Source: Mytilus trossulus
Lineage: Eukaryota
Direction of reading: 5' to 3'
DNA: 64,000 bases
Assembly: GCF_036588685.1 (NCBI RefSeq)
Contig: NC_086373.1
Span: forward strand, 41,292,001-41,356,000
Under the pieces are notes generated by a model. It worked only from the letters and a program-made list of their open reading frames with translations. It made no database searches and was not told where the DNA came from. Made by a program: the position numbers and the translations under genes. The number at the start of each line of letters is the position of its first letter. Position 1 is the stretch's first letter. This document shows positions 299 to 63,882 of this stretch, piece after piece.

Positions 299-3200
299 CG
301 ATTCCAAAGGGAACATTCGTATAGTTAAAAACACCATCGTCTACGGCAAATACAAAATTTCCGTCTTGATCAGGACTATTTGCACCAGTCCATATGTAGT
401 TCACTAAAAGGAATTGACTTATAATTAATATCATTGGATTCATAATCACATTCAGTTAGCAAATACTGTCTTAGACGTGCCCAAAAACTTATCCCACATA
501 GTTATATGAAAGACAACTGAAACTTAAATAAGCACACAATTCACTGTCCTCACAAGCTGACCTTGGTGATACGTCTGTATCTCAACTCACTAACCACATG
601 CTTTCACATTCTCAGATCTTTTAATAGCGTAAAAGTCGTTTCATCTGTAATGTTTCCAATTTTGTCCTTTTCCCGATAATAAAATTTTGTCTGAATTTCG
701 TCAGGATGTATTACAGGAGACGCTTATCCTGTCGACGCAATCGGTATCACTCGGTATCACTCGGTATCACTCCCTTTGGAGCTCATGCGACTCCCTCAGT
801 TTGTTTCCTCGATTTTTCCACTTGTCTTCGGTTTGTGCATAAAACGCATTGATTCGTAAATATAAAAAACGAAGATGTGGTATGATTACCAATGAGACAA
901 CTCTCCACAAGACACCAAAATGACACAGAAACTAATAACTGTAGGTCACTGTACGGCCTTCAACAATTAACAAAGCCCATGCTGCATAGTCAGCTATAAC
1001 AGGCCCGAAATGACATTGTAAAACAATTCAAACGAAAAAAACCAACCACATAATTTATGCACAAAAGCTACGAAAAACAAATATGCAACACATGAACAAA
1101 CGACAACTACGGAATTTTAGGTTTCTGACTTGGGACAGTCACATACAAAAATAATATGTCGGGGTAAAACTTTTTTACCGGATCCCCTAACCTGGGAGAG
1201 TGGCGTAACAGTACAAAATAAGAACAAACTAAAAAAAAGGCTGAACTCATCAGATGGATAAAAACAAAAATACTACATATACAAGTGAACGTGGCCGGAT
1301 ACCTATACAGAAATAGAAGGTACAGCTCTGAGAGTACTCGAAGTGACTGACAGCTGGTTCAAAGCGACAAACAACTTATAAAAAAATCATGCATCTAAGA
1401 ATAATTATCAATCAGTACACTACCAACATCGAATGGTTTTGTGTGAAGACGTCATAAACAGTAAGAGATTAACATGACATTGTGCAATGCCAAGATACAG
1501 GTATCGACAGATATCCATGAATGTGTATATGTATATAACATTAATATTTAGTTTGCTTTTTAATTTACTAATTTCAATATCAATATTTATACCAATAAAA
1601 ACAAAATTCAGTGATCTAATAACAGTGTTGAATTGGTAACTAAGAATAAGTTGATTTAAAGGATCGATAAGTTTATCAGGATTGTTTCTTAATTTTCGGG
1701 CACGTTAAACAACATTTCCGTAAAATAAAGGAGGTGCTATATCGTTTGAAATAAGTTTTGTACAGGAACAACTAAACTTCAAAACCAAATCTTTATATCT
1801 ATTCATATTTTATTTGTAACTTATGCTGGGACAACACAATCCCTATCTGTTGTTTTTTGCACATTTCAAACACATTTTAAGACGAAAAATTATGAAGTCG
1901 GAATAACTTGATCGCTCAATCTGTTGTGCTATAGAATGACAGTAAAATCAAGAATTACAAAACCTATGTGTTTAGATACATGTCGTTCAACTGATTGATG
2001 TTAAAAAGTGAGTACTTTTCCATAATTTCTAAGAGCTGTGGTTATTTATTACAATGATAAAAAAAAATTAGTTACTTAATAATAACTTACAGCATTTGAA
2101 CTGATCAAAGGCAGCCTTAGCTTCTGCTTCACTATTTGGTCTCCATAAATAAGCTCCTGGTGTCATGCTACATATCGACTAAAATTTAAAAACAGTCTAA
2201 GTATAAGATAAAAAAAGATAATACAACAAATCATACGTGTTTTACACCGGGGAAGCACAGTAATAATAACTTATTAAGCTTTTAACTCATCGGTACTGCA
2301 ACTGAATATTACTAGCGATTTTTGTCAGGTTATCTCAAATTCTGTGGATTCAATTATTTTCGTAGATATTTAATTATGTGGCTTTGTGAACAAATATATA
2401 TTTGATCTCATGGTTTCGACAAAGTCTGACTACAAGCCTATGTGAATGTTCAGTCTTTAAATTAGAGCTTATGATATACCCATAAAACTCTATGAATAAT
2501 AATGAATCATCAATTTTAACATTGAAGTGATAATGCATACACTTTTGGTTACTTTTCAATGTATACACTATGAATGTGTTTTTAAATAGAACCAGATGTA
2601 CATGGATTAGTTTTTCATGCATTTCCATCTCTATCAAATAATACTCGAAATATGTTTGATAATTCGATCTTAGCCGATACGTTCCTTAACGATGATTGTT
2701 TTCATGGTATCACTAAGCATGCGCCTCAAATTGATACCTGTTTTTTTGCCAAAAAAATATCATGTTTAGGAGATATTGTTGAAAGTGGTGTTGAACACCT
2801 ACATCAATCAATCAACAATAAATAGAGGTGATTGAGTTAAATATTTTAAATATAATGCTATTATTCTTCGTTCTTCCATCCACATACCATAAAAAATATA
2901 TGTTAATTAATTGAAATAAAATGTGAAGCACTTTGATTGATAAAAAAACCAATGGTAGACAGGAAAAACGAGAGATCCGTTTGCATAATTTCTCAGATGT
3001 GTGCTTTCATATGTCATTACAACCATACAAAATCAACAATACCTGAATAAGAGGAAATTGAATCTCATACAACATAAAACATACTCACCAAAGCACTAGC
3101 CCATGCTTCGTAAAGGTGATCCGGTTTAGCGTGAACGTAGCAATTACGACTAGCAGTTTGGTTATCTAACTCCACATATCCTTCAGGACAGGGAACACAG

Positions 3201-6200
3201 GATACTATTTATATAACACAATAAGAGTTAAATGTTAAAAAAATAGATACAACATTGAATTGACTGATCACATCAACAAATATTATTAGGTTAAATGTAC
3301 AACATTGGCAGGATGAAAATGTAATGTATACCTGTATCGTGAAGGAAACAAAAGTTCTAAGGTGTATATTTGTATTGCATAAGCCACATTCATGTATAAA
3401 GTAACAACAACAAAAGAATGACGTTACAATGAAAGTTCCTTACCGACGTCCGGAGGACGTCACGCTAAAGTTCGTGGGTTTCTCAACATTCTCCGGGGCC
3501 GCAGAAAGTGTCTCAAATATACTGAATGAACTTTTACGAATAAATGAAATGAAATATTTCTTTTAAAATTAATGTCTGATATAAATTAAATAATTTAAAT
3601 TTACTGTCTGCTATAAAGGTTTTAAGTTGCTTCCTTGAAGATATCCAGTGTAAACTAATTTGACTGTCGCTCCATAGTACACACTTTTTAACGTTCCGTA
3701 AACTTGACATTATATGTGAAGTTATCCGTCCTCCGACTAATGCTGCCATAAGTTCAAGTTGTGGTATTGTTAACTTTTTCAAAGGTGCCACGTCTCGAAA
3801 ATTCAATCTCTGTGCATTTTTTCAAGTCTTGATCGATAGAATGCCACTGCGGTCTAATTTCATCAGGTATTTGTTCGTCCCACCCTAGTTTCTGTGTCCA
3901 TAAATCCTGCAATAGTATCTTGCTACGCACTGTAACTGGGCTTAGAATTCAAAGTGGGTCGTAGATTTTTGACGATCTTCTTAGTATTTCTCGTTTCGTG
4001 ATTTGATTTTCTGGTAGCATAGACTAACACGGTCATCTTTGGGTTTTAAAGCGGTAAGTAATCAACTTTGATGTAGGGTCTGTTGAGTCCTTTAGCCAGA
4101 AAAATCTCGTCATATCTCTGTCTTTCTCGTCTAGCGTGATTTGAAGAAACGCCTTCTCTATATCGGTAACACCAGCATATCTATTCTCTCTAAATCGCAT
4201 CAAAAGTGTTGATATGTCATTTAAGATCGGGGGTTCTTTGCGCAAACAATCATTCAGACTGGGCGTGTCTTGTGATCGACGACAGCTACAGTCATAAACA
4301 ATACGGATGGGTGTCGTAGCGGAATCTTTCTTGACTGAATGGTGAGGAATATAATGCGCATGTTCTGTGCTTGTTGTTGGGTTGTCTATGCGTTCAATAA
4401 ATCCTCTCTTTTCCTGGTCGTTTATAATCTCACCATATTTTCTAAGTAAAAACGGATCGTTGCTGAGTCTTCGTACTACATTTTCTGTTCTTCGTCTAGC
4501 TATGTCGATGTTGGACGGAAGTGGTTTATGTTCGTCTTTCCATGGAAGTTTTGCTGTGTATTTACAAGTATTGGCATCGTACGATATATTTGTAGATATG
4601 AAGTTTTCCAAATATTCTGCGTTTGATTTTTCCTTATTCTGAGGCGTTATTCCTAATGACTCGATTTTCCAGAAGTTTTCTAAATCATATTCCTCTTCTT
4701 TGTGTCTAATTAAAATGTTCATCATTGAAGTAGTTCCTTCTGTTGATTTCTGTGTCGGGCCAGAAAGCAAATACCCTATTCTTGACTTGACTGCAATTGG
4801 ACCGTTGCCTCGTATTATCTTATCTTCAATGAAATCCCAATAATGGTCAGCGCCTATCTATAAATTTACGGAGAACACGTCATGTCCTGAAAGCGGGTGT
4901 GCCAGTATTAATCCGCGCAAGTATGGTAAGTTAGTTGTCTCGGTAGTATGTATCCGTATCGGTGAAGCTATTTCAGGAACAATGAGTATATTCAGCTGTA
5001 TGCGGCTTCCGTCTTCCGTGAGTACAAATATGTCAGCGGTTTTCAAATGGCGTACTGATCCGTTACCTCCTCCAAATCCAGAAATTGATATGGCTTCTGT
5101 TCCGTTTTGTTTTAGTTCTAGTTGCTCCGCTAGACTTTCTGTAATAAATGAGCGCTGAGCCCCTTCGTCGAATAGTATGTTTGCATCCATACTGACTTGC
5201 GCGTTTGAGTGCACCGTAGCTATCGCGGTCTTGAGAAGTACTTGTGAATATGTAGTACAGTGCATTGCTGATGCGGATTCGGCTAAATCTTGCTTATCTG
5301 ATGAAGCGGGTTTATTATCTTTATTGTTATGATTCGAAATACTGTTGCTAGAAAACGAAGACTGACTCTTATTTAAACAAATACTGGTATGATGTTTTCG
5401 TCCACATTGTTTACAAGTTCCTTTAGAGTTACAATCTGTAACTCGGTGGTTGCCAAGACAATTAAAACAAGCTTTCTTTTGTTTAAGGATTTCTAGACGG
5501 TCTTTTTGGTCAACAATTTTCATACATGTATTAGGGCTATGAGACTCACCACAATAAATACATGGTTTCCGCGTGTGAACGGCTACCTCACTTTTCTGTG
5601 GCTTTCTGTTATTGTTATTGTAGTTATTTTTTGTGTCAGTTTTTGCAAGGTATACTGTGCTATGCAATGTTTCATCTGATTCTAAATTAACTCTTTGTCC
5701 GGCTTCTAATATACTTATCTCATTAAATAAGTGTTGTCTGAGTTCATCAAGCGACCACTGTTTTAAACCATGTTCACGGGTAATATTCTCCTTAATTCTA
5801 CTTGGTAATTTGTTGACCATAATAGGTATAAGAAATGCACCATATGATTCCTGACTTTGACCTAGTGATTCTAGTCCTCTTATGAGCGTTTCTTATTTGT
5901 CATAAAATCTGCGGCATGATTGTACTGTACTTTCGGGTGCGGGTAGAGCTAACAAAGTCTGCATGTACGTGTGCGTGATTTTTTGAGTCTGTCCAAATCG
6001 CTGGTGTAATAAATCTATTGCTTTACTGTAGTTTAAATTTATAAGCGTAAAACCCGAAACTGTAGTCAAAGCCTCGTTTTGAAGTAGTGTTTTCAAATAG
6101 TTGAATTTCTGGGCGTCTGTTAATGAGGGATTACTATGCATTGCTGTGTCGTAAGATTCCCAGAATGCTTGCCAATTAAGAATGTTGCCGTCGAATTTAG

Positions 6201-9039
6201 AAAGTTCTAACTTTGGGAATTTGTGAAATTGAGAAAGTTGCTGTTTGACATATGAGGAGCATACATGAATTGTGAATTGAACGATGCTGTTTGGTTTCTA
6301 TTGACATCAAAACTCTGAGCTAAGGGGTTAAGTGAACTATCTGTTACTGGGAGTGAATAGCTACGGGTGGTTGGTTCTAGAAATTTACGCATTTTGCGTA
6401 TTTTTGTCTCTAAAGTTATAGAATACTCATCTGAATCAGAAATTTCCACTTCAAGTTCCTCTTCCGATAATTCACTAATAATTTGATTGTTCAAGTCTTT
6501 GCTCATCAATGATCAAATCCAAAATGGTTGAAACTTCGTCTCTGTCAAATTCTTCTTTAGATGTCACATCGTCAAATCTCCACAAAAGCCTTGTGAGAGC
6601 GCTCCTGTGTCCCGAACGTGTTCCTTTTAACTTTGTTGACATTTTCCAGCAGTCACGGCACCATAATATCGTGAAGGAAACAAAAGTTCTAAGGTGTATG
6701 TTTGTATTGCATAAGCCCCATTCATGTATAAAGTAACAACAACAAAAGAATGACGTTACAATGAAAGTTCCTTACCGACGTCCGGAGGACGTCACGCTAA
6801 AGTTCGTGGGTTTCTCAACAACCTTTCTTGGAGAAGAGTACTATTTCGTCAAATTAATTCCATGGTATTTTGACGACATACACACAGTGATAAACCTATA
6901 TAGAATGGTTGTACTGTATAATGCAGCCGTTAACAACTAAATAGGGTAAATAAAAATAAAAAGCAGTTACTCGCAAAATACTATGATTATTGTTATGAGG
7001 TGAGTACTATGCATACCTTATTTGTATCAGCATTATAGATATATATATATAAAGTAAAACATATATTTTCAGACTTAAGTTATAAAAATGATATGACTTA
7101 AGTTTAGATATCTAAGTTTTTATACACGGGTAGTGATTTGGTCAAGCTAAAAATGGTTAAAATTTACCATTTTAGAAGCTGTCAACAGTTTTTAGATCCC
7201 CTTCACATAAAATGATTAAAGTGTCTATATTTTGAATTAGAACAGATGAAATTTTCCATTATTTTGATATAATTCATCCCGAAAGTACAACATACTGTAA
7301 ACATATTAATGAGGAAGAGCAGGTCGGCACTGGGCTCCAACCATGCGATTGTTCACGTAAACATATTAATGAGGAAGAGCAGGTCGGCACTGGGCTCCAA
7401 CCATGCGATTGGTCACGTAAACATATGTAACGCAGACAAAGTTGCAGAAAAGTAGCAAACAATAGGCTTGGTTGCTAAATAATTCCATTTATTTACTTTT
7501 TCCAGATCACATAAAACAAATTGTGACGTGTTTAAATTGTTATTGTCCAAATAAATAAACTCATTATAGATATCAGGACTAAATTTTGTATATACGCCAG
7601 ACGCGCGGTTCGTCTACAAAAGACTCATCAGTGACGCTTAAATCCAAATAAGTTAAAAAGGTCAAATAAAGTACGAAGTTAAAGAGCATTGAGCTAAAAA
7701 TTTTGCCAAATCCAAGTATACTAGTATTCATAAAGTAACGGGTATTGATCTATGAAACTTAACCGAAATAAACTTATTACAATTAAATTTTATTCTTCTG
7801 GTGTATCCTTTGTGATGACTCTAGTTAAATTCACAAACAAGCGTATACATTAGCCATGGCGTTGTCAGTTTGTTTTAGATTTACGAGTTTGACTGTCCCT
7901 TTGGTGTCTTTCGTCCCTCTTTTATCGGCATAGTTTTCCCATACAAATGTAAAAAAAACAAGTGTTTGATATCGCAATTGCTTGAGAACCTTGTGTTCTC
8001 ATAATATTTTGTTATATTTTTTTGTTATCATAATTTAATAAATTGTGTCAAATATGTACGTTTAATTTAAAGACAATAATATATTGCTTTTTATAATGTT
8101 CAATTTTATTTAAAACATGATTATTTATTCCAACACATGCCTATGTTTCATTTTTGAAATAGAAAGAACTATCGATCATGTTTACATTTACAACATGGTC
8201 CTCCATTACAACATTTTCCTTTTTCGATCCATCCTTCACCAAACGCATCATCACAAGTCAGACCTTTTCGTCCACACGTGCCATTTGAAGCCAGACAATT
8301 CCTAGTAAGTCCTAAAGAGTACAGTTCTTAAATATAATGTGATATAATGAGCTCCAATCTCTGCATTATACAATATTGTACTATGACGTGCTTCTTTCAC
8401 TTAGTGAATAAACCCATGCTCTAAATCCAATAAAATTTGTGTGCACATGCGTATATTGACTACTGCAGAATAATGAGTTTTACCAAATTGGCATGCATTT
8501 AATATATTTCATTAACTGAAAACACTTGAAACACTTAAATGATGCACATGTTGTTACGAATTCATTTATCATGACTGTAATGTGTTGCAATTCTAAATTG
8601 ACATATTTGACCTAGATACGACAACTGTTCAAGCTGGCTGTTCAAAACTCCCCCACTAAAAAATCACGTTGCCAGTCGTTTGCTTGTTTACGAATAAAAA
8701 AGGAAGGTGCACGGAAGAGCCTACACAAACACTATATACACTTAAACACATCGCAAATAGCAATTACCTCACTATCGCTCGGGCAAAATTAATCACGCTT
8801 ATAATGCCAACCCATTTTAAAACTAGGTAAAAACTTTCGTCTTATTCTCAATAGTGAACACGTAAAACAATAACATTTAAAGCAGACAAAATACAGTCAA
8901 AATAATTTGCTTTATTTCTTTAGTGAACACGGGGAGGACAGCACATACCTGTAATGATACATAACGAATACTTACTTCCGCCAGTAGAAACATGAATTAT
9001 GCAGAGGACGATTACAATCAAACAACAACATTTCATCAT
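299..9039 (-). CDS. Secreted defensin-like + C-type lectin domain protein, 3' end outside window. Coding exons (minus): 9039-8976, 8311(or 8326)-8186, 3204-3089, 2178-2091, 403-299
   Basis: Exons have AG/GT ends and compatible phases (1,1,0,1,1). Joined translation: MMKCCCLIVIVLCIIHVSTGG-R-LTRNCLASNGTCGRKGLTCDDAFGEGWIEKGKCCNGGPCCK-L-SCVPCPEGYVELDNQTASRNCYVHAKPDHLYEAWASAL-SICSMTPGAYLWRPNSEAEAKAAFDQFKC-L-NYIWTGANSPDQDGNFVFAVDDGVFNYTNVPFGI. CPxGY..CY..W..A...C...GAxL...E...W(T/I)G..D..G.F is the long-form C-type lectin pattern. The N-terminus is hydrophobic. Confidence 0.8.
865..1805 (-). mobile_element. 3' fragment of a Penelope-like (Naiad-type) retroelement, second family
   Basis: 1640-1805 (minus) translates as RYKDLVLKFSCSCTKLISNDIAPPLFYGNVV*RARKLRNNPDKLIDPLNQL, matching the C-terminus of the 31024-31803 ORF. 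A degenerate SECIS-like hairpin (~1400-1462) and an interspersed terminal repeat follow. Confidence 0.65.
3335..3488 (-). repeat. 3' LTR of BEL/Pao element 1
   Basis: Direct repeat of 6667-6820. On the minus strand it is preceded by the PPT-position sequence GCGGCCCCGGAGAA. Confidence 0.93.
3534..6642 (-). pseudogene. Disrupted BEL/Pao gag-pol (gag, aspartic protease, partial RT, partial RNase H)
   Basis: ATG at 6642 (MSTKLKGTRSGHR). ORF pieces 6207-6509, 5893-6141, 4858-5820, 4033-4770 and 3534-3806 are colinear with the polyprotein at 42257-47718. Confidence 0.88.
6667..6820 (-). repeat. 5' LTR of BEL/Pao element 1
   Basis: Direct repeat of 3335-3488, adjacent to the tRNA-His PBS. Confidence 0.93.
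7297..7426. repeat. 60-bp tandem duplication (2.2 copies)
   Basis: gtaaacatattaatgaggaagagcaggtcggcactgggctccaaccatgcgattg(t/g)tcac occurs at 7297 and 7357. Confidence 0.9.
7555..7710 (-). mobile_element. Hammerhead-ribozyme-containing interspersed repeat (retrozyme-like), degenerate
   Basis: Minus strand 7594-7637: gcgtca-CTGATGA-gtct tttgt agac-GAAC-cgcgcg-TC-tggcgt. This is a minimal type I hammerhead with GAAA changed to GAAC. Confidence 0.75.
8186..8311 (-). CDS. Exon encoding a beta-defensin/big-defensin-like Cys module (C-x6-C-x6-C-x13-CC-x4-CC)
   Basis: Acceptor tctttag| at 8312-8313, with an in-frame alternative at 8327-8328. The donor gtaaac at 8185 is weak, with an alternative 6 nt earlier. 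Phase 1/1 fits both neighbouring exons. Confidence 0.7.
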
Positions 9040-20862: not shown

Positions 20863-22130
20863 TTATGTGTAACCATTGACGCGAACACATTTATTGCATC
20901 CATTTACGTTTTGACAATCCTCATTGAAGTTGCATTGTTTCCTTAAAAAACAAGTGTCGACACAGCTTTTTGGGAAAATTCGATGAACTGAACCACCAGA
21001 TACAATACGGTCAAATGAATCACCTTGGATGATACGACCTGCTGAATCGCCTCGATTAACACGGCCTACCGAACCGCCTGGAATAAGATTATGTACTGAG
21101 CCGCCTGGAATGATACTATCTCCTTTGCCGGCTAGGGTAATACGATCTAATGAACCGCTATGAATAATACGATCTAATGAACCTCTTCGAATAATACTAT
21201 CTCGATTACCGCCTAGGGCAATACGATCTACTGAACCGCCTGGCAGAATGTGGTCCAATTGGGAGTTATCAACCATTCTTTGGCAAAATCTTCTGCAATC
21301 TTGTCTTCCTGTCAATCTACAACTTCTTAAGCATCCCGATGAGACTGTATTACCAGGAAGTATTGAGTCTATTGGTACACGATCAAGTGTTCCAATGACT
21401 TCAACAGCTCTACAAAAACTATTACATCCTACGGTTTTGCAGAAGTATCCTAGTCCACAACTTCTGTCACTTAAGCATTGTTTATCACATTTCGGCTTCA
21501 TTGAGTATTCTGTAATATAAAAAATAGAAATTGTTATTTTATTGAAAATTTCATTAAATGTAAAATGTCGAAATTTAAGAGGAATGTTTTTCTTTCTTTC
21601 ACTCGGTTTTCGTGTTTTTTTTATTTCTTGAATGTTCACCGTTATTATGAACTGGATGTTTGACTAGTTATATAAACATTATGAAAGAAATGTTGACCAT
21701 TCCTTTTAGTGAAATTTTACGTTTAAATATCATACCCAGAATCATGCAGTATATTTGAGTTATTCACTACTTCTAATTTGAAGTTGTCTCATTGACATTC
21801 TGTGAGATATCACTTTTTCATGTAGACATATTGCTTAAAGAAAAGTTTATTTGCAGTACTTTTTTCGACCTTATTCGAAAGTTTTCCACGATTCCGTTAT
21901 TTTTCTTTGATTTTTTTCTGGCTTCACCTCTGATATCATACTTGATAAACACTGTACACATGAGAACACTTTGTTCGTATTAAGTTATAAATGAGATAAT
22001 TTTTGGCTTTTTGAACTGTGGACTACAAAGCGAATCATAATTACTAATATTCTATATTTTATATAAAATACAAACCTGCAAAAACACAGGAAACAAATCC
22101 TAGAAAAATCAAAACAGCTTTTCCCTCCAT
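20863..22130 (-). CDS. Cluster gene 1: secreted Cys-capped Gly/Ser/Arg/Ile-repeat protein, 233 aa. Coding exons 22130-22076 and 21509-20863
   Basis: Signal exon MEGKAVLIFLGFVSCVFA-G|gtttgt. Acceptor ttacag|AATACTCA gives EYSMKPKC... The frame is intact to VRVNGYT*. AATAAA lies at ~20757-20762 (minus). Four paralogues are in the window. Confidence 0.9.
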
Positions 22131-27716: not shown

Positions 27717-29162
27717 ATGGAGGGAAAAGCTGTTGTGATATTTTTAGGATGTATTTCATGTGTTTTTGCAGGTATGTATCCCTCTTCGTTTCATATGCAA
27801 ACTATATTTGATCATTTTGATAATAATATATATTCAAAAGAATGTAATTAAGCAGTTATAATTCCGAAGAAAAAATTTAAAAAAAAATCGACAAACTCAT
27901 ACGTATTTTTTAAAGTACGAACAAACCATAAACAATATTCCTTCATTAATTCCAAGAGGTATTCTTTAGAAAAAATTGCCAATCGCCGTATAACAACTTC
28001 TCACTCTTTGTAAAGTGGTCAAGACCATCCAAAGACTAAATTTGCTTTCCTTTTTCGTGTTTTTATGAGATATTCCATACGTTCACACAATACTTCTTCA
28101 CAATAACGCACACAAAGTTATATGATTCTTTATTCTCTCCACAATGTTCTAAACATAATTCGGGTACACCCCATAATGAAATCACATTTTGTTCATGAAA
28201 TTCTTTGTATTTTTGATAAAATCAGTATGACACCATTGGTAATTTGAATTAGACAAACCTTATAATTGCAATAACCACAAATAGTGATATAAGTGTTTTA
28301 TGATCATCTGTCATTTTTGGTTAAAAAAACTTTTTTTAAAATATTTATGCATATAAAGCGTATTTAAACCTTTAACAGGAACGTTGAGACCAGAATTCAT
28401 CTGCACTCTATGAAATTATTACAAACAATAAAAAATAGCAACATATAATATCTAAATCAAATAATTTTCATTTACATAGAAAAAAATAGAGATAAAAATG
28501 AAAAGCAGTCTTATCTCATTATAAACATTATTTTATATCATCATTTTTAATTTTTAAAATTTATTATTACAGCAGGTTATCCAGTCACAAAAAAGTGTGC
28601 TAATGAATGTTCGAGTCGTTTAGATTGTGGAAGAGGATACTATTGCCAAACTATAGGATGCAATAGAAGGTGCACATCTCTAAACTTACCAATTGGCAAT
28701 GCTCATATTGACCAAGTAGTTTCACAAGACACATTCGCATTGGAATGCGAACTAAGATGTAGACAACAAGGAAGGGTAGGTTGTAGACGACTTTGTCAAC
28801 AAAATGGAGATCAGTTTCTAGTAGACCAAAGATTCCCAGTTGATTCCTTGGACCATTCCTTTCAAGGGTCCTCAGTAGACCGTGCCTTTCCAGGGGATTC
28901 ATTAGGAAGTATTCGTTCAGGCAGTCTTGTTGATCGTATCAGGTCAATCGGTCCAGTAGACCGTACCTTTCCAGGGGCTTCATTAGGCAGTATTCGTACA
29001 GGCAGTCTTGTTGATCGTATCAGGTCAATCGGTCCAGTTGAGTCAATTCATCATAAAGGCTGCGAAAACATGTGTATTTCTAGGAATCAATGCAAACTCA
29101 ACGAGGATTGTGTCAGCAGAGATGGATGTAACGTATGTGTTCGCGTCAGTTCATATGCGTAG
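27717..29162 (+). CDS. Cluster gene 2: secreted Cys-capped repeat protein, 213-214 aa. Coding exons 27717-27771 and 28573(or 28576)-29162
   Basis: MEGKAVVIFLGCISCVFA-G|gtatgt. Acceptor tacagcag, then GYPVTKKCANECSSRLDCGRGYYCQTIGCNRRC..., in frame with ORF 28740-29162, ending VRVSSYA*. Confidence 0.9.
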
Positions 29163-29631
29163 TGGGACAAATAAACACAGACTACATAGTGCATACCATT
29201 GTAAAATATATCAATGTATCTTCTTTTTTATAATTTTATAATAAAAAAAATAATAGATGTAGAGCTGTATTCATCTTTTTTTCGGTAGAAAGCTTTAGAA
29301 ACTTAAATACATGAAATGTTGATTTTTTTTATAATTTGCTGGAACTAAATAGAACTAAAATGAAATGCGGATGTTTTTAAAGCTGTCACATTAACAAACT
29401 GAGGTATTTTGTCAACTCGAAATCTACACCAACGAAACTATTAGGAAAAACTTAAAATATTCCGTTTCATGTGTAAATCAAAATCTAAAAAAGGAATATA
29501 TTTATTATCAAAGAAAATTTCGGGCCAATTATACCAATATTTCGGACCTAATTTCTATTTCAAAAAACAACGGCAGACATTATCTGTTAACAAAACTCTG
29601 TTCGTTACCGGTTAACAAGATAAATGAAATT

Positions 29632-31803
29632 TTGGAGGATTGCAACACAATTTCATATAGCAGTCCTAAGTATGAAATTGTTCAAATTATTATGGCATAT
29701 TGTTATTCTAAATTATTTCCCAAAATTGATCGCCCTGAAGATCATAAAAAACATTTTATTAAAATTAAGTATGTCAATAAAGGCTTTGATTTTGTAAATA
29801 TTGCCGGTATATTTAACGACCATTCTGTTAAAGAACAAATTCCTGGATATTTTGACAATACTGAGCTACCTCTTATTTGTTATATTTACAAGAAATTTAC
29901 CCGGAAATTTGTGTTTAATTATAGTCAATTGTGTAAAGATGTTAATATCAGTGAAAATACACCTACGTCATGTAATTGCAGTAGTTCCGAATATATTTAT
30001 GGACCCATTTCCCATCTTATAACAGGAGATATTAATATCGTTCAAGACCGAGAGTTAAAATTATTTCCCAGTAAAGGACCTAAATATCGTCCCCCGTCAA
30101 TTATTAATTGGAATGAGTGTCGTAATATCATCCACGACTCACTCCATACTTACTGTATGAAATGGATAAAACGGGAAAAAGCTGACAAAAAATCTTTGGA
30201 CTCTTTTTTTAATTCAGTAATGAAGATAGTTGATATACGTATTCAACATTTTAAAGAATATTTTACTATTATCAATAACCACAATAAACCTATTACTCGT
30301 ATCAAACATAAACTAAAAGAACTAGCCAAGGAATTTGTTTTTGTCCCGGCCGATAAAGCTGCTAATAATATTATTATTGTTTGACGTAAATTTTACATTG
30401 AGGTTCTGAAAAAAGAAATCACCAATTCACCAACATTCCAACTGACTCCATTTTCAGAAAACGAATCTGTAACAAACATAAACTTTTAGCCACAATGAAA
30501 GTCCCAACTATGTATTGGCTTCCGAAGCTACACAAAACCCCTTACAAATATAGATTTATTTCGTCTTCAAGCCATTGTTCAACTACTAAATTGTCTATTC
30601 TTCTTACCAGCACACTTGGTACAATTAAAAACCTTATAATAAATTGTTCAAATAAGGCCTTCGAAAATGGTGGAATAAATTACTTTTGGAGTGTCAAGAA
30701 CTCGTTGGAAGTACTTGATAAATTGCATGCTTATATTGGTGATTTTGAATCTGTTCAAAGTTTTGATTTTTCTACCCTGTATACCACATTTCTTCACATT
30801 CTCATTAAGAAAAAGTTCACACACCTAATTAAATGGGCATTCCAAAAATCAGAATGTGAATATATATGTTCAAACTCTTTAAGGTCATTTTTTAGTAGCA
30901 ATACACAAAAAAAACTATGTTAATTGGACATGCTTTGATACTATATATGCCCTTGAATTTTTACTAGATAACATTTTTGTTCGCTTTGGGGATTCCGAAT
31001 ATCGTCAGATTATCGGAATTCCAATGGGGACTAACTGTGCACCACTTATTGCGGACCTCTTTTTGTATTGTTATGAGTTACAATTTATGACAAAAATAAG
31101 CAAATACCCATCAAAACAACATCTGATAAACAAATTTAATAATACTTTTAGATATTTGGATGATATTTTGGCTCTCAATAATGACGACTTCAGTATGTAT
31201 ATTAATGAAATTTATCCTGCTGAACTTACTTTAAATAAAGCTAATACTGACAATGACCACTGCCCTTTCCTCGATCTTGATATCTATATCACTAACGGAA
31301 AGCTGAATACTAAAATTTATGATAAAAGGGATGATTTTTCATTTCCTATCGTTGATTATCCGTTTTTAGATGGTGACGTTTCCCTGTCACCATCTTATGG
31401 TGTTTATATATCTCAACTTGTACGATTCGCTCGTGTATGTAACAATGTTTTAGATTTTAATGAGAGAAATTTATGTATTACTGAAAAATTATTACACCAG
31501 GGTTTTCGATATCACAAACTAGTCAAAACGTTTACTAAATTTTATCATCGGTATAAAGACATCATTAGTAAATATAGCTCAACATGCAGACTTCTTATAC
31601 GTTCAGGTATTTCACATCCAATTTTTTATGACAATATTCTTTATAAAGCACAAAGGTGTCAGTATTCACCTCAGAAACTTACAAAACCTTTGAATAGACT
31701 TATTAAGAAGGGATATAATTACGATACTGTTGTCAAGTCATTAAAGATTGCATATTTTGGCGTTAATATTGAGTCACTGATAAGGTCTTTGCGTCGGAAC
31801 TAA
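29632..31803 (+). pseudogene. Penelope-like reverse transcriptase, frameshifted (~30465-30494, ~30910). TGA at 30382-30384 is a likely Sec codon
   Basis: Three colinear ORFs: 29632-30384, 30495-30923 and 31024-31803. The frame continues past the TGA as RKFYIEVLKKEI. Confidence 0.85.
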
Positions 31804-36904: not shown

Positions 36905-38050
36905 TTATGTGTAGCTATTAACTCGAACACATTTATTACATCCATTTACGTTTTGACAATCCTCATTGAAGTTGCATTGTTTCCTTAAAAAACAAGTGTC
37001 GACACAGACTTTTGGGAAAATTCCATCAACTGAACCGCCAGGCACAATACGGCCTAATGAACTGCCTTGAATAATACGACGTGCTGAATCTCCTCGAATA
37101 ACACGGTCTACCGAACTGCCTGAAATAATACGATCTAATGAACCTCTTCGGATAATACTTTCTCCTTTACCGCCTAGGGTAATACGATCTACTGAACCGC
37201 CTGGAATAAGATTATGTACCGAACCGCCTGGAATAATACGGTGTACTGAACTGCCTGGGATGATATGATCTAATGAACTTCCTCGAATAATACTATCTCT
37301 TCTACCGCCTAGGGTAATACGATCTACTGAACCTCCTGGCAGAATGTGATCTAATCGGGAATTTTCAACCATTCTTTGACAAAATCTTCTGCAATCTTGT
37401 CTTCCTGTCAATCGACAACTTCTTAAGCATCCCGATGAGACTGAATTGCCAGAATTATATTCTATAATATGGAAGATTGGAAATAGTTAAAATGTTAAAA
37501 TGAAGTGTAAAATGCCGAGTTTTTGGGAGAAAGAGGTCTTTGTAGTGTTTGTAATATTTTTTATCAATATTATGACTTGAATTTGTCTGAATATTTGCAC
37601 ATAAATATGAAAGAATGGTGGCACATTACTTTTAATAAACTATTACGTTTAACATCTAAGACTGAATTATGCAGTTTATGTGAGTTATTTTCTTTAATTT
37701 GCTGTCTTAATAAGAAATATTGTCTTCATTATTAACATCTATCGCCAAAAAAGTGTTTTTATTAAGTTTTTGCTGTACTTTCTTCGGCCTGTTTTGAAAG
37801 TTTTTTTCACCCGTTTCAGGTATTTTTTTTTAAATTTCTGGCTTCACCTCAGATATCATACTTGATAAAAACTGTAAAAATGAGAATTTTTTTTCCGCAT
37901 TAAGTAACAAATGAGAATATTTTCGGCTTAATGAACTTTGGACTACAAGGAGAGTCATCATTACTATAATTTTTTATTTTATATAAAATACAAACCTGCA
38001 AAAATACAGGAAACAAATCCAAGAAAAATCAAAACAGCTTTTCTCTCCAT
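36905..38050 (-). CDS. Cluster gene 3: secreted repeat protein lacking the N-terminal 6-Cys module, 203 aa. Coding exons 38050-37996 and 37461-36905
   Basis: MERKAVLIFLGFVSCIFA-G|gtttgt. Acceptor attatag|AATATAAT gives EYNSGNSVSSGCLRSCRLTGRQDCRRFC..., intact to VRVNSYT*. Closest paralogue of gene 1. Confidence 0.88.
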
Positions 38051-42256: not shown

Positions 42257-45200
42257 TTATGTTTTACGGAACGGTTGAATCCAACTTTTGATTTTCTCCT
42301 TGGCATCAGTTTTTGCTTTTCTAGTTGAAGTAATAGTATTGTCACTGGAATCACACGGACTATCTGTTGATAAGAGTTCAAGTGGATATAGCTTACTTAT
42401 TGGTCTAGATGTCGTGCCTTTTTTAGTGCGTAAAATGGCAGTTCTACAAAGTCCATCTCTCCCATAAACTAACTTAACGATAATCGCTATATTCCACACT
42501 GTCCTTGGGGTATCATCATGAATCTGTACAATGTCGCCCACTTTAATGATTTGAGTGTTATTTCCGGTGTTTCTATGTTGTTCCCTAAGTGAAGTGAGAT
42601 ATTCTCGTCGCCATCTGTTCCAGAAGTCGTGAATAATGCGTTTTTGAACACTAGATTGTCTATTTGCTGTGTAATGTGTTAAGTTTTGTAAGTTCTCCTC
42701 ACTGCTGAAATTAATTGTTCCTGAATACGGTAAAGTTTTAACCCGTCTTCCATAGAGAAGATGAGACGGTGTAAGCGGTTCATCATCGGTAAGGTCCGTT
42801 GATACGTGGGTTAACGGACGATCATTTAATATAGCCTCTATCTCGATCACAATTGTCTCTAGCACTCTAAAAGTAACTAGTGCTCGTCCTAACACTTTCT
42901 TTATGCAATTCTTGGTCAAGCCGATCAATCGTTCCCACCAACCACCATACCATGGGGCACGTTTCGGAATAAATTTCCACTGAGTTCCATATATGTTGAG
43001 TTGTTCCTGAATAGAAGCAGATTTTGTAAGCATTTCAATTTCCTTCGCTGCTGCGGTATATGTTGTACAAATGTCAGACATCATGATTTTTGGTAACGAT
43101 TTGCGGCTGGTGAATCTCCTAAACGCTAGAATGAATGTTTGTTCTGTAAGGTCTTCGATGATTTCCAAATGCACAGCTCTAGTGTTAGCGCAGGTGAATA
43201 GACAAATATATGCTTTACTAGTACTGTTGCTTTTTGTTCTAACATGCAATGCTCCTGTGAAGTCGACACCGGTTACGGTAAACGGTGGTGAATCATTAAG
43301 TCTGTCGGACGGCAGTGGTGGTGGGTCGGGTGTATGATAGGGTCTTCCTGTAATTTTACGGCAAGTAACGCAATTACGGAGTATTGATTTAACACATTGT
43401 CGAATCGACGGAATCCAGTAAGACTGGCGAATAAATGTCACTGTACTTTCTAATCCAGAGTGAAAATTCTTTGCGTGTGCATCCATCACAATTAATTTAC
43501 AAAATCTGTCTTTGTTCGGTATTAGTACTGGAAATTTAGCTGATTCATCAATAGGTGCATTGTTTATTCTCCCACCACAACGGATAATGTTCATTTTATC
43601 CATGTACAATCAAAGTTGCTTCACTAGCGCATTTTTCTCTGATTTGTTGTTTAAACTCTCAATAACATCCGGGTATTAACGCAGTTGCGAATCTCGAATC
43701 CATGAAGTCGAAGCAGTCTGAATTTCATTGACACTAAGATTTCCTGTTAGTTTGTCATTATTTCTACAGTTGTTTATGAATCGGTACATGTATGCTGTTA
43801 TACGCAAAAGTTTTTGGTATGAGCTGTAGCGTTGTATATCCATAATTTTACTTATTCCTTCATAAAATCTTATTTTCTGTTGCGGTTCACTAGTTGATTG
43901 CCCTTGCTCAATTGTAGTGCTAAGAATGTGCGATTCTTTATTCTTCCACTGTGGCCAGTTTGATTTGTCAGTGAGCCATTCGGGTCCTTTCATCCAAAGA
44001 TCCAATTCTAGGAATTTGGTTGCAGTTACTCCTCTCGATAGTATATCTTCCGGATTTGAATATGTCGGACAGTACTTCCATGTGTATTCTTGAGTAATTT
44101 CGTTAATTTCCTTCACTCGATTACTAACGAAAACGGGTAATTGTTTCTCAGTAGTAAGCCAACTTAAAGTTATCTGACTGTCACTCCATAATGTGACGCT
44201 TGTATCCTCCAAGTGCGATTTCAAATGCTTGACGAGTCTTGCGCCTATCAAAGCTGCACTGAGTTCTAACTTCGGAATTGTTAACTGTTTCAGAGGTGTC
44301 ACTCGATTCTTTGACATGATAAGCACGGTTTCTTTTCCACTGACTAAATATGCGCATGCTCCATAGGCTTTCAAGCTTGCATCCGTAAACACATGTAATT
44401 CTACATTGTCTGATTTTTCTTTGAAATACGGTCTATTAATTTTCAAATGTGAACATTCATTAATATCTTGTAGTACACACTTCCATTCTGTTGTAATTTC
44501 AGATGTAAGAGGTTCATCCCAATTTAATCCTTTCTCCCACAAAGTCTGCATAAGCATCTTACTACGCACAGTAACTGGACCAATAAGTCCGAGTGGGTCA
44601 TATACTTTCGATGATTGTCTTAAAATCTCTCGTTTTGTCATACGTGTATCTTCAATATCGGTGTATTCCGGTTTGGCGAAAGTAAGTGTGTCGTTACAAG
44701 TGTTCCATCTCAATCCAAGCACTTTTATGAGTTCATCTTTGTCTAATACGCTGTGTGAATTTGCGCGGTCTCGCAAAAGTTGAGAATTTGAAGCCCATGA
44801 GCGCAAGTTAAATCCTGCTCTAGTGAATAAGTCTCTTGATGTATCAAAATATTTCAGTAATGCACTCTCTGTAGGAAAACTCGACAGTATATTATCAACA
44901 TACAAATCGTTCTTTAAAGTGTCAGTATATTCACAGCGGTTCTCTCTCAAGTGTTTTTGTAGAACGGAATTCAGTATGAATGGCGATGAAGTGGCTCCAA
45001 ATAATACAGACTTAAATCGGTAAGTTGATAGTGGAGTTGATGGGTCTGTTGGTGTATCGAACCAAAAGAAACGTGTGACATCTCTATCCTGTGTCTCTAG
45101 TCCCACGTTCAAGAACGCCTTCTCTATATCAGTAGTAACGGCAAATTGGTGTAAACGAAATCTTAAAAGTATGCCGACTAAGTCATTTAAATTGGGTGGA

Positions 45201-47718
45201 GTGGTCATCAAACAATCATTTAGACTAGACGATTCTGGTGTTGCTTTACAACTGCAGTCGAATACGACCCTGATTGGTGTTGTAGTTGAATCTTTTCTCA
45301 CAGCATGATGCGGAATATAGTGTACTTTGCTCTTTTCGTCGGCCTCATTAGTAGTATGCACTTTCTATGAAGCCCCTTTTCTCCTGCTCAGCCATTATTT
45401 CTCCATATTTTTCCAATAGTTTGGGTTCTTTGCTAAGTCTTCTTACTACACTTTCCGTCCTTCGTTGTGCAATGGCTTTATTTGTCGGTAACGTAGGGTG
45501 ATCCTCTTTCCATGGTAACGTTACAAAATATCTGTTGTCATGGTAACGAATTTGTTTCTCTTCATAAGTCTTTTGAATATCCATCTGTTCTTCTAACTTT
45601 GTGGTGTCAATTTTCTCGGTGACTCTATTTTCCAAAATTTCTCCAAGTCGTACTCATCGGTTTTTGTTGCGATCATCACGTTCATCATCGAAGCTCTCTT
45701 GTATCCATCTGTGTCAGAGTTGTGTGAATGTAGCGTTCCAGACAACAGGTATCCGATCTTTGATTGAACAGCTGTCGGTCCTTCGCCTCGGATAATATCA
45801 TTCTGAACAATTGACCAGAAGTAATCAGCTCCAATTAGAATAGAAATTTCAAAGTTTTCATCTGCTGTTACTGGGTGAGCTAATTTGATTCCTGACAAAT
45901 ATGTAAGTTTTGCTGCTTGACGTACATAGGTTCTCATCGGTGCTGCGATCTCTGGAACGATCAAGACTCGAATCGGCAGTTTACCATCTGTAGTTATGAG
46001 ATATACAAATCCTGTTCCTAAATGGCAAATTTTAGTACTATTTGCATTGTCTCCAAATCCGGATAGGTTAACGCTTTAAGTTCCAGTAGGTTTGAGTTTC
46101 AATTTCTCGGCTAATTCCTCTGTGATAAATGAGCGCTGTGCGCCTTCGTCAAACAATATTTTTGCATCAAGTATTTCATGTTCTACACTTACTGGGTTAA
46201 TTGCTGTCTTCAAAAGTTCACGATCTGTCGATTGCGAGTGTAAAATAGTGTCTGATTCCTCCGCGTTGTGTTGAATTGTGCCTACGGTTATATCCCCTGT
46301 TGGTTTGTTGTCTTCATTTCTTTTAACATTGTCTTTGCAAATGCTGGTGTGATGACGTTTGTGACACTTGTTGCAAGTTTTTGTAGATTTACATGCGGAT
46401 AAGCTATGGTGTCCTAGACAGTTAAAGCATAAACGATCTTTTTTCACGATTGACATCCGGCCATTGTAATCAGATACTTTAGTGCAATTAACAGACGAGT
46501 GTGGCTCCTTACAGTACGCACAGAGTGGTTTGGGTTTAGTGTTACTTGAGTTTGTATTCTTGTTACCTCTATTTCGATTACTATAATTTGTATTTGTCAG
46601 AAAGGCGGCGGTAGCTGTAGGGGGTTGTAACTGTTCTGAAGTTTTGCCTGCATCCATAATATAAAGTTCATCGAAAATTCCACGACGTAATTCATTCAGT
46701 TGTAAATCTGTAGATCTATATTGTCTGGCAAGATTTCTGCGGATTTCACCGGGTAGTTTGTTCATAATGATGGGCACTAAAAACGCTCCGTATGTGTCTT
46801 CACTTTGACCTAATGACTCCAAACCTCTAATGTGTATCCCAATTTCATCGTAGTAGTCTTTCATGCTAGATATCGTGTATTTAGGGGCTGGTATATCAAC
46901 TAGTGCTTGCATATCCTTCTGTCTTATTACATGCGATTGTCCATATCTGTCTTGCAGTAAAGAAATAGCTTTCTCATAATTTGCATGTGTAAGAGCAAAC
47001 CCTGTGACGGTTTTCAATGCTTCATCATGGAGTAGTGACTTCAAATAATTAAATTTCTGAACATTTCCAAGAGTAGTGTTTTCGTGAACGGATATCTCGT
47101 ATGAATCCCAAATGACTGCCACTGCATAATATTACCATCAAAGGTAGGAAGATTCAATTTGGGCAACTTGTTGTACTCATTTAATCTAGTGTTACTACGT
47201 GAAAACTGAGTTTCCGGTACACGGAAGTTTGAATTACATGTATTCTGTTTATTGTATATCTCGGGTTGAGCATAACTTTGTTGATCATGAGCAGGTTGAG
47301 CATAACTTGGTTGACCATGAGCGGGTTGAGCATCAGTGGGCTGAGCAGAGGCGGGTTGAGCAGAGGCGGAATGTGAAGGGTCGCTATAACTGACGAAATC
47401 TTTTGCATTTGTACTGAGTGTGGATGTATTGACAAGAATGAGCTTTTGTATTTGCGTTATTTTCCCATCTAATGTGTAAGCATACTCATCTGAATCGACG
47501 ATCTCGGCTTCTACTTCTCCTTCATCAAGATTTTCTAGAATGTCCTCATTAAGTTTTTGTAGTGTCTCTTGTTTCTTCAACAGATTGTTCACAATTTTAG
47601 TTAACTCTTCAGTGTTCACGGGCTCATCTTCGTCGTTTCGGATGTCCTCAAATTTCTTCAAAAGTCGGGAAATAACGCTTCTGTGTCCTGCACGTATAGA
47701 ACGTAGTTTGGAACTCAT
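42257..47718 (-). pseudogene. BEL/Pao gag-pol polyprotein with 3 frameshifts and 3 in-frame stops
   Basis: ORFs 47041-47727, 46076-47122, 45593-45964, 45348-45635, 43676-45361 and 42257-43609 are consecutive parts of one polyprotein. Confidence 0.93.
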
Positions 47719-47735
47719 CCTGGTCACGGCACCAA

Positions 47736-47907
47736 TATCTTAGAGTGGTATAATCAGACTTTTTAGGCACAATAAGAAATACTTGCTGTTTCTACTTGTA
47801 TTGATTCTAAATTCCATTTGCACAAAAATCTCAACGTCATAAGTAGCATGACGTTACAATACATACATAGCGGTACCGCGAACGTCTAATGAACACAGTC
47901 CTGAACA
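47736..47907 (-). repeat. 5' LTR of BEL/Pao element 2
   Basis: Direct repeat of 41970-42141, adjacent to the PBS. Confidence 0.96.
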
Positions 47908-50129: not shown

Positions 50130-51467
50130 ATGGAAGGAAAGGCTGTTATTATTTTCTTTGGATTTATATCATGCGCTGTAGCTGGTATGTATCTTATTTT
50201 ATTACATATTCAATCATTAGTTTATTGTTTTGATGAGAGAAATTTGACAAAGAAATAAATTTTAAGCAAGCATTATTCTACAAAAATACACACAAAATAT
50301 TTGAATATCGATATACCACGATTATTTAAACAATAGACCAAATACATGTATACCTAAATCAACATTCCAACAACGCTACTTCGTTTCACCTTTTTGACGA
50401 CTCATTCTACGTATACCTTCACTCATAAGAAATATATTAGAAAACATAGGAATTTAAAATCATTTAAAGAATAAAAATTGTGGTAATCAAAACTATACGG
50501 ATTTTTTTTTTATTTGGAAAAAGTACATAGAATTTAGAGTCCAACACATTATTTATTGTTTCATTGTTAACAATATTAAATTAGCAGTCGTTTTTCATTA
50601 ATCTAATTCGCCTTTTCCACGAGTTCAAAACATATTTCACCCTCACAAGGAACGCTGAAACCACAAAATCACATTTACTCAATGCAATAATTAAAGCAGA
50701 AATTAAATTTGTAACAAACAGTGTGGATATCGAAAGTATTGAAACCAAATAATATTTATGATCTAAGTTACCAATGATATTTCATATTTAAACATTTCTA
50801 AATGAAATTTATTATTACAGTATATTCAGTCAAAAAACCAGTTTGTGAAATTGAATGCTCGAGTCATTCAGAATGTCTAGATGGATACAGTTGTCAAACA
50901 GAAGGATGTGATCGTATTTGCAGACCTAGGAGAGTGATTTTATCAAATTCAGCAATTAGATCCGACATTATTTCATCCGGATGCGTTCAGAGATGTATGG
51001 ACCGAGGAGAACTAGGTTGCAGAAGTCTTTGTCAGCGAAGTTTAGATTCATTGTCAGGAGGCCAAATCATTCCTGGTGGTTTCTTAGACAGTGGATTCCA
51101 AGATGCTTTAGTAGATCCTATTCGGTTAGATAGTCTTGTTAGACATACCTTGCCAGTAGGTGATTCTATTCGGCCAGGTAGTCTTGTTAGACGTATCTCG
51201 CCAGTAGGAGGTTCTATTCGTTCAGATAGTCTTGTTAGACATAACTCGCCAGTAGGTGATTCTATTCTGTTAGATAGTCGTCTTGGACGTATGTCACAAG
51301 TAGGTTCTATACGGTCAGGAAGTCTTCTGGGGCGTATCTCGCAAGTTGATTCAATTTTACATAAAGACTGTCAAAATACATGCATTTCACGAGGCTGCAA
51401 CTTTAACGAGGAATGTGTAACAAGAGATGGATGTTCTGTATGTGTTCGTGCCAAGACCTACGCATAA
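50130..51467 (+). CDS. Cluster gene 4: secreted Cys-capped repeat protein, 233 aa. Coding exons 50130-50184 and 50821-51467
   Basis: MEGKAVIIFFGFISCAVA-G|gtatgt. Acceptor ttacag| at 50820 gives VYSVKKPVCEIECSSHSEC..., ending VRAKTYA*. AATAAA at ~51560. Confidence 0.92.
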
Positions 51468-62347: not shown

Positions 62348-63882
62348 ATGGAAGGGAAAGCTGTTATCATTTTCTTTGGATTTATAGCATGTGCTTTTGC
62401 TGGTATGTATCTTATAACGTTATATATTTTTGTTATTGTTTAAATGCTGATTTATACAAGGAATTAAGTAGTTATGAGCAAACATTATCAAAACATTACA
62501 GTCCAAATATTTGAAAACAAACAATCCAAAAATTCTTAAAACAAATGATTAGATACATGAATGTTGAAATTAACATGCAAGCAATGATACATCGTTTCAA
62601 CACCTGGTTTATACGTTTACCATGTTTCTGAAGGAAAACAATCAGGGAAAAAAACAAATTTGAAATCATTTAAGAATAAAAATTGAAGCATGCAAAACAC
62701 AAATGACGGATACATAACACAAGAATACCTGATATTTTGTATTTAAAGCACAAACATGCTTAACGATCGGTGTAAGTAAATTAGAACAACGGTTTTTGAC
62801 CTTGAAAAATAGTTAATAGAACAAAGATTCCGACAAAAACAAACTTTTTTGATCTATTATTTAGAAAATACAAAAATAAACATTCATTTATTACGAATTT
62901 ATTTTACATATTTCTATGAGTAAAAGGCATTTTTCACTCTCGCTACTTACGATGAAACCATGAAAGTACTCTATGCAATGTTTATATCAGTAATACAATC
63001 TATAATAAACACTTTGTTTGTAAAAATCATCGAAACCTAATTATATTTATAATCTGATCGACGTCACTGTTGGGTCTTATGTAGATGAAATGTTCGTCCG
63101 ACTAATGAAATAAATAGCCTGGTATCTCTTATTTTTTCGATTGATAATTCATATTTCAACATTTATGATTAAAATTTATTATTACAGTATATTCACCCAA
63201 AGGCGGGAAAGCTTGTGAAATTGAATGCTCGAGTCATTCAGAATGTCCAGAAGGTCACAGTTGTCAAACTGAAGGATGTGATCGTATGTGCAGACCTAGA
63301 AGAGTAATTTTATCAAATTCAGCAGTTAGATCAGACATATTTTCATCTGGATGTCTTCAGAGATGTATGGACCGAGGTAACCTAGGTTGCAGAAGTCTGT
63401 GTCAGCGTAGTGAAGATTCATTATCGGGAGGCCAAATCAATCCTGGCAGATCCTTAGACAGTAGATTCCAAGATGCTTTAGTAGATTCTATTCGGTCAGA
63501 TAGTCTTGTTAGACATACCTCGTCAGTAGGTGATTCTATTCGGTCAGGTAGTCTTGTTAAACATATGTCGCCAGTAGGTGGTTCTATTCTGTCAGATAGT
63601 CGTCTTGGACGTATCTCACAAGTAGGTGATTCTATTCGGTCAGGTAGTGTTGGAAGACATATCTCGCCAGTAGGTTCTATAGGGTCAGGTAGTCTTCTTG
63701 GACGTATATCTCCAGTAGGTTCTATTCGGTCAGATGGTTTAGTTGGACGTATCTCGCATGTTGATTCAATTTTAAATAAAGGCTGTCAAAATACATGCAT
63801 TTCACGAGGCTGCAACTTTAACGAGGAATGTGTAACACGAGGTGGATGTTCTGTATGTGTTCGTGCCAAGACGTACGCATAA
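62348..63882 (+). CDS. Cluster gene 5: secreted Cys-capped repeat protein, 249 aa. Coding exons 62348-62402 and 63188-63882
   Basis: MEGKAVIIFFGFIACAFA-G|gtatgt. Acceptor ttacag| gives VYSPKGGKACEIECSSHSECPEGHSCQTEGCDRMC..., in frame with ORF 63286-63882, ending VRAKTYA*. AATAAA at ~63975. Confidence 0.92.

Follow-up and report, generated by a model that had tools for sequence, protein, structure and literature searches.

Five exons of one gene and their surroundings

In the window analysed here, a stretch of 64,000 nucleotides of Mytilus trossulus DNA (NC_086373.1, positions 41,292,001 to 41,356,000), five minus-strand exons join into a single stop-free frame of 166 amino acids that leaves the window in phase 1. 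Exon 1 (9039-8976, 64 nt, phase 0/1; 21 codons plus 1 nt, donor GTAAGT) supplies the start codon and a signal-peptide-like hydrophobic leader, and exon 2 (8311-8186, 126 nt, phase 1/1) encodes a 41-residue module with a predicted beta-defensin fold and seven cysteines, spaced C-x6-C-x6-C-x13-CC-x4-CC. Exons 3 (3204-3089, 116 nt, phase 1/0), 4 (2178-2091, 88 nt, phase 0/1) and 5 (403-299, 105 nt, phase 1/1) together encode most of a C-type lectin-like domain, with an additional cysteine closing exon 4 and a W-T-G core motif in exon 5, and about 45 further residues of the product are expected left of the window, beyond exon 5. AG precedes all four internal exons, GT follows all five exons and the phases are compatible, confirming that the gene is real and that a sequence-only reading of this DNA was right to propose five phase-compatible exons, among them a symmetrical phase 1/1 module exon with the cysteine spacing given above. 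A loose version of the module motif occurs once in the window (six frames) versus 0 times in 40 triplet-shuffled windows, and its presence is therefore not due to chance.

Two alternative donors lie within reach of this frame. Exon 1 would be longer by 9 codons if the second in-phase donor at 8949 (minus strand) were used, and exon 2, whose own donor is weak (GTAAAC), has a second in-phase donor 6 nt upstream (8192, minus strand), use of which would lose the last cysteine. The annotated forms P0013 and P0014, which lack the last cysteine and stand alongside P0015, match use of this upstream donor.

Annotated Mytilus proteins of the same layout back the exon junctions: the window product aligns over all five exons (166-169 aligned residues) with XP_071121987.1 (P0002) at 82% identity and with P0001, P0025 and P0010 at 79-81%. 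The same module-lectin join is present in RefSeq and GenBank models from several assemblies, and exon 2 alone, used as a query, returned longer Mytilus proteins for 9 of 9 candidates. Because annotated Mytilus proteins share it, the combination of module and C-type lectin domain is not unique to the window. Among the 15 of 59 spliced joints listed for four read sets (shares 0.04-0.21, three of them only guessed to be RNA), mapped at 85% likeness and dominated by repeats, none fell at the five exons. One X1 contig covers 8201-8311 and stops at the acceptor while another crosses it, a pattern that could reflect splicing or a paralog. The exon joins, which appear strongly supported, rest on gene models rather than on spliced RNA.

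Intron 2 spans 4981 nt, of which 3486 nt belong to a BEL/Pao-type LTR retrotransposon (3335-6820) in the same, minus-strand orientation as the gene. Its 154-nt LTRs are 99% alike, the flanking 5-mers are alike at 4 of 5 positions, a primer-binding-like site follows the 5' LTR, the gag, protease and RT frames are broken and the integrase part is apparently missing. The element is a recent insertion and, lying on the same strand as its host gene, may affect splicing. A scan of the intron that recovered exon 1 as a control found no second leader exon. The intron also holds a tandem repeat at 7297-7416, made of two 60-nt copies that are 98% alike.

Elsewhere in the window, five paralogous large frames (20863-21663, minus strand; 28551-29162, plus; 36905-37486, minus; 50802-51467, plus; 63169-63882, plus) are 38-48% identical to the first of them and match no Pfam family above cut-off. 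Conserved cysteine-rich units at their start, middle and end are separated by G/S/R/D-rich repeats, and the frames may be a tandemly arrayed family of secreted proteins, of matrix or inhibitor-like type. Two more elements were read by eye: a second BEL/Pao-like element with several frames at 42257-47739 (minus) and a reverse-transcriptase-like element at 29395-31803 (plus).

The family of Mytilus proteins that carry the module

A profile of the module recovered 97 proteins among 1250 candidates, and an exhaustive search of representatives gave 31 matches, 24 of them module-bearing; the other seven were dropped, four as repeat-derived or unrelated and three as falling below the profile cut-off. 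Annotated relatives of the same architecture were found, and wherever a species name was shown it was a Mytilus (edulis, galloprovincialis, trossulus, coruscus or californianus); among the annotated proteins of other bivalves no module-bearing one appeared. The sole match in a metagenome scan (56 of 64 parts), a bacterial frame whose surroundings look like a glycine-cleavage operon, was rejected as chance, and an Atlas search with residues 22-70 of P0002 gave no match.

The full seven-cysteine pattern is present in 111 of 136 collected proteins, and the domain after the module is a lectin in 48, Sushi plus lectin in 24, MAM in 23, Sushi in 8, fibrinogen-C in 2, EGF in 1 and none assignable in 5, counts that include isoforms, alleles and several assemblies and are not gene counts (two degenerate cases were reassigned to Sushi plus lectin in later counts). 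The module is fused to a partner in 106 of these 111 proteins, and Pfam confirmed the partner domains on subsets of the family. The chimera of module and lectin noticed at the locus is, then, present as a fusion, but it is not a one-off, since the module heads 111 proteins with five kinds of partner. It sits near the N-terminus, behind a related leader and as one full copy per protein, in 107 of 116 proteins, the other nine being extended far at the N-terminus, apparently in models that were merged or carried too far. With leader and module constant across the family, the variable part is the recognition domain. The exact pattern is missing from 15 of 125 profile matches, including P0013 and P0014 (no last cysteine) and P0053/P0054 (no Cys39). 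No complete free-standing module was found among 17 short candidates, the only two short matches being a single-exon call with no name and an incomplete model.

We aligned 91 rows of our own selection, leaving out truncated sequences, those with long N-terminal extensions and those missing the terminal cysteine. Six cysteines, two glycines and Trp27 are kept in 91 of 91 rows and Cys5 in 90, and a Phe-Gly-x-x-Trp patch in the extra helix/loop is invariant. Mean identity is 0.63-0.71 in the module versus 0.45-0.53 in the partners, the former inflated because ten Cys/Gly/Trp positions are fixed.

Sushi, EGF, MAM and lectin domains typically occur as phase 1 modules, and run-on predictions that end in Cys directly behind the CC pair suggest that relatives of the window gene may use the same phase 1 donor. 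A tree built from 74 leaders over 63 columns is weakly resolved, with many open forks, and requires 8 changes of partner type, where 4 is the minimum. On it the leader of the fibrinogen-type RefSeq protein P0039 groups with those of two lectin-type proteins (support 100/98), and the fibrinogen claim rests on P0039 because the other fibrinogen fusion, P0006, shares 56 identical residues with P0004 and might come from gene models that were merged. In a first test a single clade of direct-lectin leaders gave p-AU 9e-31, a value driven by P0122, which is a Sushi-less isoform of a Sushi plus lectin gene; the test was therefore repeated without P0122, an exclusion decided after seeing the tree, and a single clade was again rejected (p-AU 0.02). 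A single clade of MAM leaders was not rejected (p 0.35). The first 65 residues of P0044 (three Sushi domains plus lectin) and P0096 (EGF) are identical, and the two lie on different chromosome-scale contigs (71.3 and 90.6 Mb), pointing to recent copying of the leader in front of a different partner. The leader tree indicates that partners were swapped, and the exon shuffling suspected at the locus is supported.

The C-type lectin domain assigned behind the module holds up through a relative, as P0002, 82% identical to the window protein, matches Lectin_C in Pfam with 32 bits against a cut-off of 22.6; the single exons of the window gave nothing above cut-off in Pfam, Lectin_C included. Calcium-dependent C-type lectins carry EPN/QPD and WND motifs, and the last exon of the window gene, where they would be read, lies outside the window. 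The motifs are absent from P0002, P0025 and P0010, and because these nearest relatives lack them, sugar binding by the window protein is uncertain. Among direct-lectin members QPD and WND occur in 0 of 23 and EPN in 1 of 23, whereas QPD is present in 20 of 21 Sushi plus lectin members, so two types of lectin domain carry the same leader; P0034, P0043-P0045, P0048 and their kin are among the Sushi plus lectin proteins with QPD. A structure prediction of full-length P0002 from 10 sequences reached pLDDT 33 and was set aside. Secreted C-type lectin-like proteins of bivalves (perlucin-like proteins, SPL-1/2 and CTL with Sushi domains) resemble the lectin-bearing members in signal peptide and Lectin_C domain; the parts of two CTL surveys that were available do not mention an N-terminal module, and 'defensin' occurs 0 times in both main texts.

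The predicted fold and its relation to defensins

AlphaFold2, run on the 91 rows, predicted a helix-strand-helix-strand-strand order (pLDDT 83.6) that includes the helix and three-stranded antiparallel sheet of beta-defensins. The first 17 rows listed by Foldseek were all beta-defensins (probability up to 0.93, TM about 0.6, none with E <= 0.001), and seven beta-defensins ranked first in an independent fold search (VIA, 48,161 chains). Superpositions on beta-defensins gave Z 4.1-4.9 and rmsd 1.4-1.9 A over 34-36 residues, with crocodile CpoBD13 at Z 4.6 (rmsd 1.4 over 34 residues, VIA), hBD-2 at Z 4.2 and hBD-1 variants at up to Z 4.9. The Atlas model of P0044 reached TM 0.58-0.63 to beta-defensin clusters, which is below the tool's bar for naming a family. 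At the level of sequence, the module profile found platypus DLP-1 (defensin-like peptide 1; E 0.011) in a different cysteine register, a PDB search with a 7-row profile gave chance matches only, and no Pfam family matched any of 22 modules under HMMER filters that drop weak matches. A beta-defensin-like fold, already suspected before any fold prediction was run, is thus predicted consistently across methods, each score being modest for so short a chain. For a disulfide domain of 41 residues, likeness of fold is no proof of descent.

According to the available parts of PMC7203481, beta-defensins have disulfides Cys1-5, Cys2-4 and Cys3-6 and genes in which a phase 1 intron lies immediately upstream of the part coding for the Cys-rich region, and big defensins have a conserved hydrophobic N-terminal domain before the defensin domain. 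The module is like the vertebrate beta-defensins (hBD-1, hBD-2, CpoBD13, AvBD3/AvBD11 and platypus DLP-1) in its predicted helix and three-strand core, in a six-cysteine frame ending in CC (Cys 5, 12, 19, 33, 39 and 40, with Cys34 as the probable extra one) and in the phase 1 start of exon 2. It is unlike them in its seventh conserved cysteine, an extra helix between Cys3 and Cys4, low charge and lack of a Pfam match, and, where beta-defensins end as a free small mature peptide shortly after the CC pair, the mussel module has no stop but continues across another phase 1 intron into a large partner domain.

With big defensins and non-canonical big defensins, as far as the available text of PMC7203481 describes them, the module shares bivalve origin, secretion and an exon of its own behind a phase 1 intron. 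It is unlike them in being N-terminal rather than C-terminal, in its Cys2-Cys3 spacing of 6-7 and in having no Pfam or PDB sequence match to them, and no solved big defensin is among the fold matches listed. The signal peptide leads straight into the module, here and in relatives. The resemblance to big defensins first drawn from the cysteine motif does not extend to membership, as there is no N-terminal hydrophobic domain and no Pfam match in 22 of 22 modules.

The seventh cysteine and the role of the module

The module has an invariant G-x-C before Cys12 and before Cys33, which agrees with the beta-defensin register and would leave Cys34 spare. While the seventh cysteine is kept in 91 of 91 aligned rows and with all partner types, the linker cysteine (SCVP) is limited to direct-lectin members, and an extra C-terminal cysteine is present in 23 of 27 proteins with the linker cysteine versus 0 of 22 without it, proteins that are related and not independent events; the four exceptions look truncated. 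The linker cysteine more likely pairs with the C-terminal one, a pairing for which the bivalve lectin SPL-1, with an N-to-C bond (Cys1-Cys135) as well as inter-chain disulfides in the available parts of PMC12842671, offers a precedent. The sequence-only reading had suggested that the seventh cysteine pairs with the SCVP cysteine, but the latter tracks the C-terminal cysteine and the seventh is kept where the linker cysteine is missing.

In a secreted protein, an odd number of cysteines usually means an inter-chain bond. Counted from the module onward the total is odd in 46 of 58 complete proteins (21 of 23 direct-lectin, 18 of 21 Sushi plus lectin, 2 of 2 fibrinogen and 5 of 12 MAM), counts that again come from related sequences. 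The two closest complete RefSeq relatives, P0002 and P0025, have an even total, as do 7 of 12 MAM proteins, because the partner domain has one more cysteine, and in such even-count proteins the spare cysteine may be used within the chain; the cysteine at the end of exon 4 is common to the window protein, P0002 and P0025. A two-copy complex prediction of the module, run without controls, scored 0.03 against a mark of 0.32, without a verdict either way.

The reading we favour, and hold at about even odds, is that the module is a disulfide-linking cap that precedes a lectin-like domain in a likely secreted protein and ties recognition domains into dimers or larger units. Six cysteines (5, 12, 19, 33, 39 and 40) would close the defensin core, leaving Cys34 exposed to bond to another chain or, in some subgroups, to the spare cysteine of the partner domain, and in the window protein the cysteine at the end of exon 4 could either satisfy Cys34 inside the same chain or provide a second bond between chains. 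Copies of a two-exon leader that ends in a phase 1 intron would have come to stand before partner exons of various kinds, producing secreted binders on a modular plan. Collectins and ficolins have an N-terminal cysteine-bearing assembly region that is common to C-type lectin and fibrinogen-type recognition domains, together with a collagen-like Gly-X-Y stalk, and by analogy with their N-terminal cysteine regions the linking of chains by the cap would raise avidity. The mussel proteins are like them in placing one N-terminal cysteine-bearing region before lectin or fibrinogen domains, and unlike them in having a compact defensin-type fold with no collagen stalk or neck coil (no Gly-X-Y stalk occurs in the window protein and the relatives read) and in taking MAM, Sushi and EGF partners as well.

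A reusable linking cap is likely rather than an antibiotic peptide. It is doubtful, though possible, that the module is instead an effector or binds microbes, whether as an antimicrobial, by attaching to membranes or lipids or by forming nets, and that the lectin domain carries it to its target. Charge speaks in both directions here: the core is neutral in the window protein (net charge 0; +2 for the whole of exon 2), in line with the early impression that the module is not strongly cationic, and has a median of +2 in direct-lectin and MAM members, but the core is more basic in Sushi plus lectin members, with a median of +4 and values up to +7. Moreover, the available parts of PMC7203481 give big defensins charges anywhere between anionic and cationic and describe nanonets in which several trans-defensins capture bacteria; activity is thus compatible with a low charge. 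The predicted beta-defensin fold would also suit an effector; against it, no dibasic site lies between module and lectin domain in the window protein, the 17 short candidates include no complete free form, and the module is more conserved than its partners, unlike the mussel CRP-I peptides, which the accessible text of PMC10138031 describes as variable in the mature region. An antimicrobial role is unsupported, and the recognition-plus-effector idea that came with the chimera finds no backing in a neutral core, a module more conserved than its partner and the lack of an annotated free form.

Unlikely, in our estimate, is that the module serves as an address tag binding a host mucus glycoprotein, receptor, protease or matrix, and keeping different recognition domains in one place, with the spare cysteine anchoring it to mucin-like carriers, a role that one conserved N-terminal copy whatever the partner, the invariant Phe-Gly-x-x-Trp patch and the binding of host receptors by beta-defensin folds (an hBD-6/CCR2 entry is among the fold matches) would suit. 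Most improbable is that exon 2 is mostly not spliced onward at this locus, which would then either yield a 68-residue precursor that stands alone and carries a peptide with eight cysteines or be a silent allele. The weak donor, with read-through adding one cysteine before a stop after 5 codons, and the 3.5-kb LTR element might suggest this. Against it, the lectin exons show no damage, keep their phase and are 79-82% identical to relatives, the scan of the intron found no second leader exon, and the added cysteine is simply the last T of the exon read with the GT of the donor, also seen in run-on predictions of P0024, P0032 and P0066.

The proteins themselves were already public, annotated under unrelated automatic names that hide the family (perlucin-like, P-selectin-like, MDGA-like and Creld2-like); what is new is the defensin-fold module as a shuffled leader. 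A description of the module was not found in the open literature, including the available parts of PMC7203481, PMC10140915, PMC12842671, PMC10138031 and PMC5549309, and one supplementary file of PMC10140915 had no match for four accessions and two motifs; subscription papers, among them the original myticofensin and mussel big-defensin reports, could mention it.

The beta-defensin fold has been met mostly in peptides that stand alone and in big defensins, where it forms the C-terminal half. A conserved, unannotated module of predicted defensin fold, set at the head of dozens of Mytilus proteins whose partner domains are of five kinds, amounts to a new domain family. Going beyond the linking cap, we tentatively suggest, as something less than probable, that a beta-defensin-type exon has become both a class 1-1 shuffling module and a covalent cap common to lectin, Sushi, MAM, fibrinogen and EGF proteins. 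These would be a collagen-free counterpart of collectins and ficolins, and any two members could form mixed, multi-specific complexes through disulfides between them. If true, this would offer a present-day example of the exon shuffling put forward for how beta-defensins evolved, a hypothesis that PMC7203481, in the parts available, attributes to Zhou and Gao. The module family bears on whether exon shuffling took part in the evolution of defensins and on the ways in which the lectins of bivalves become multivalent.
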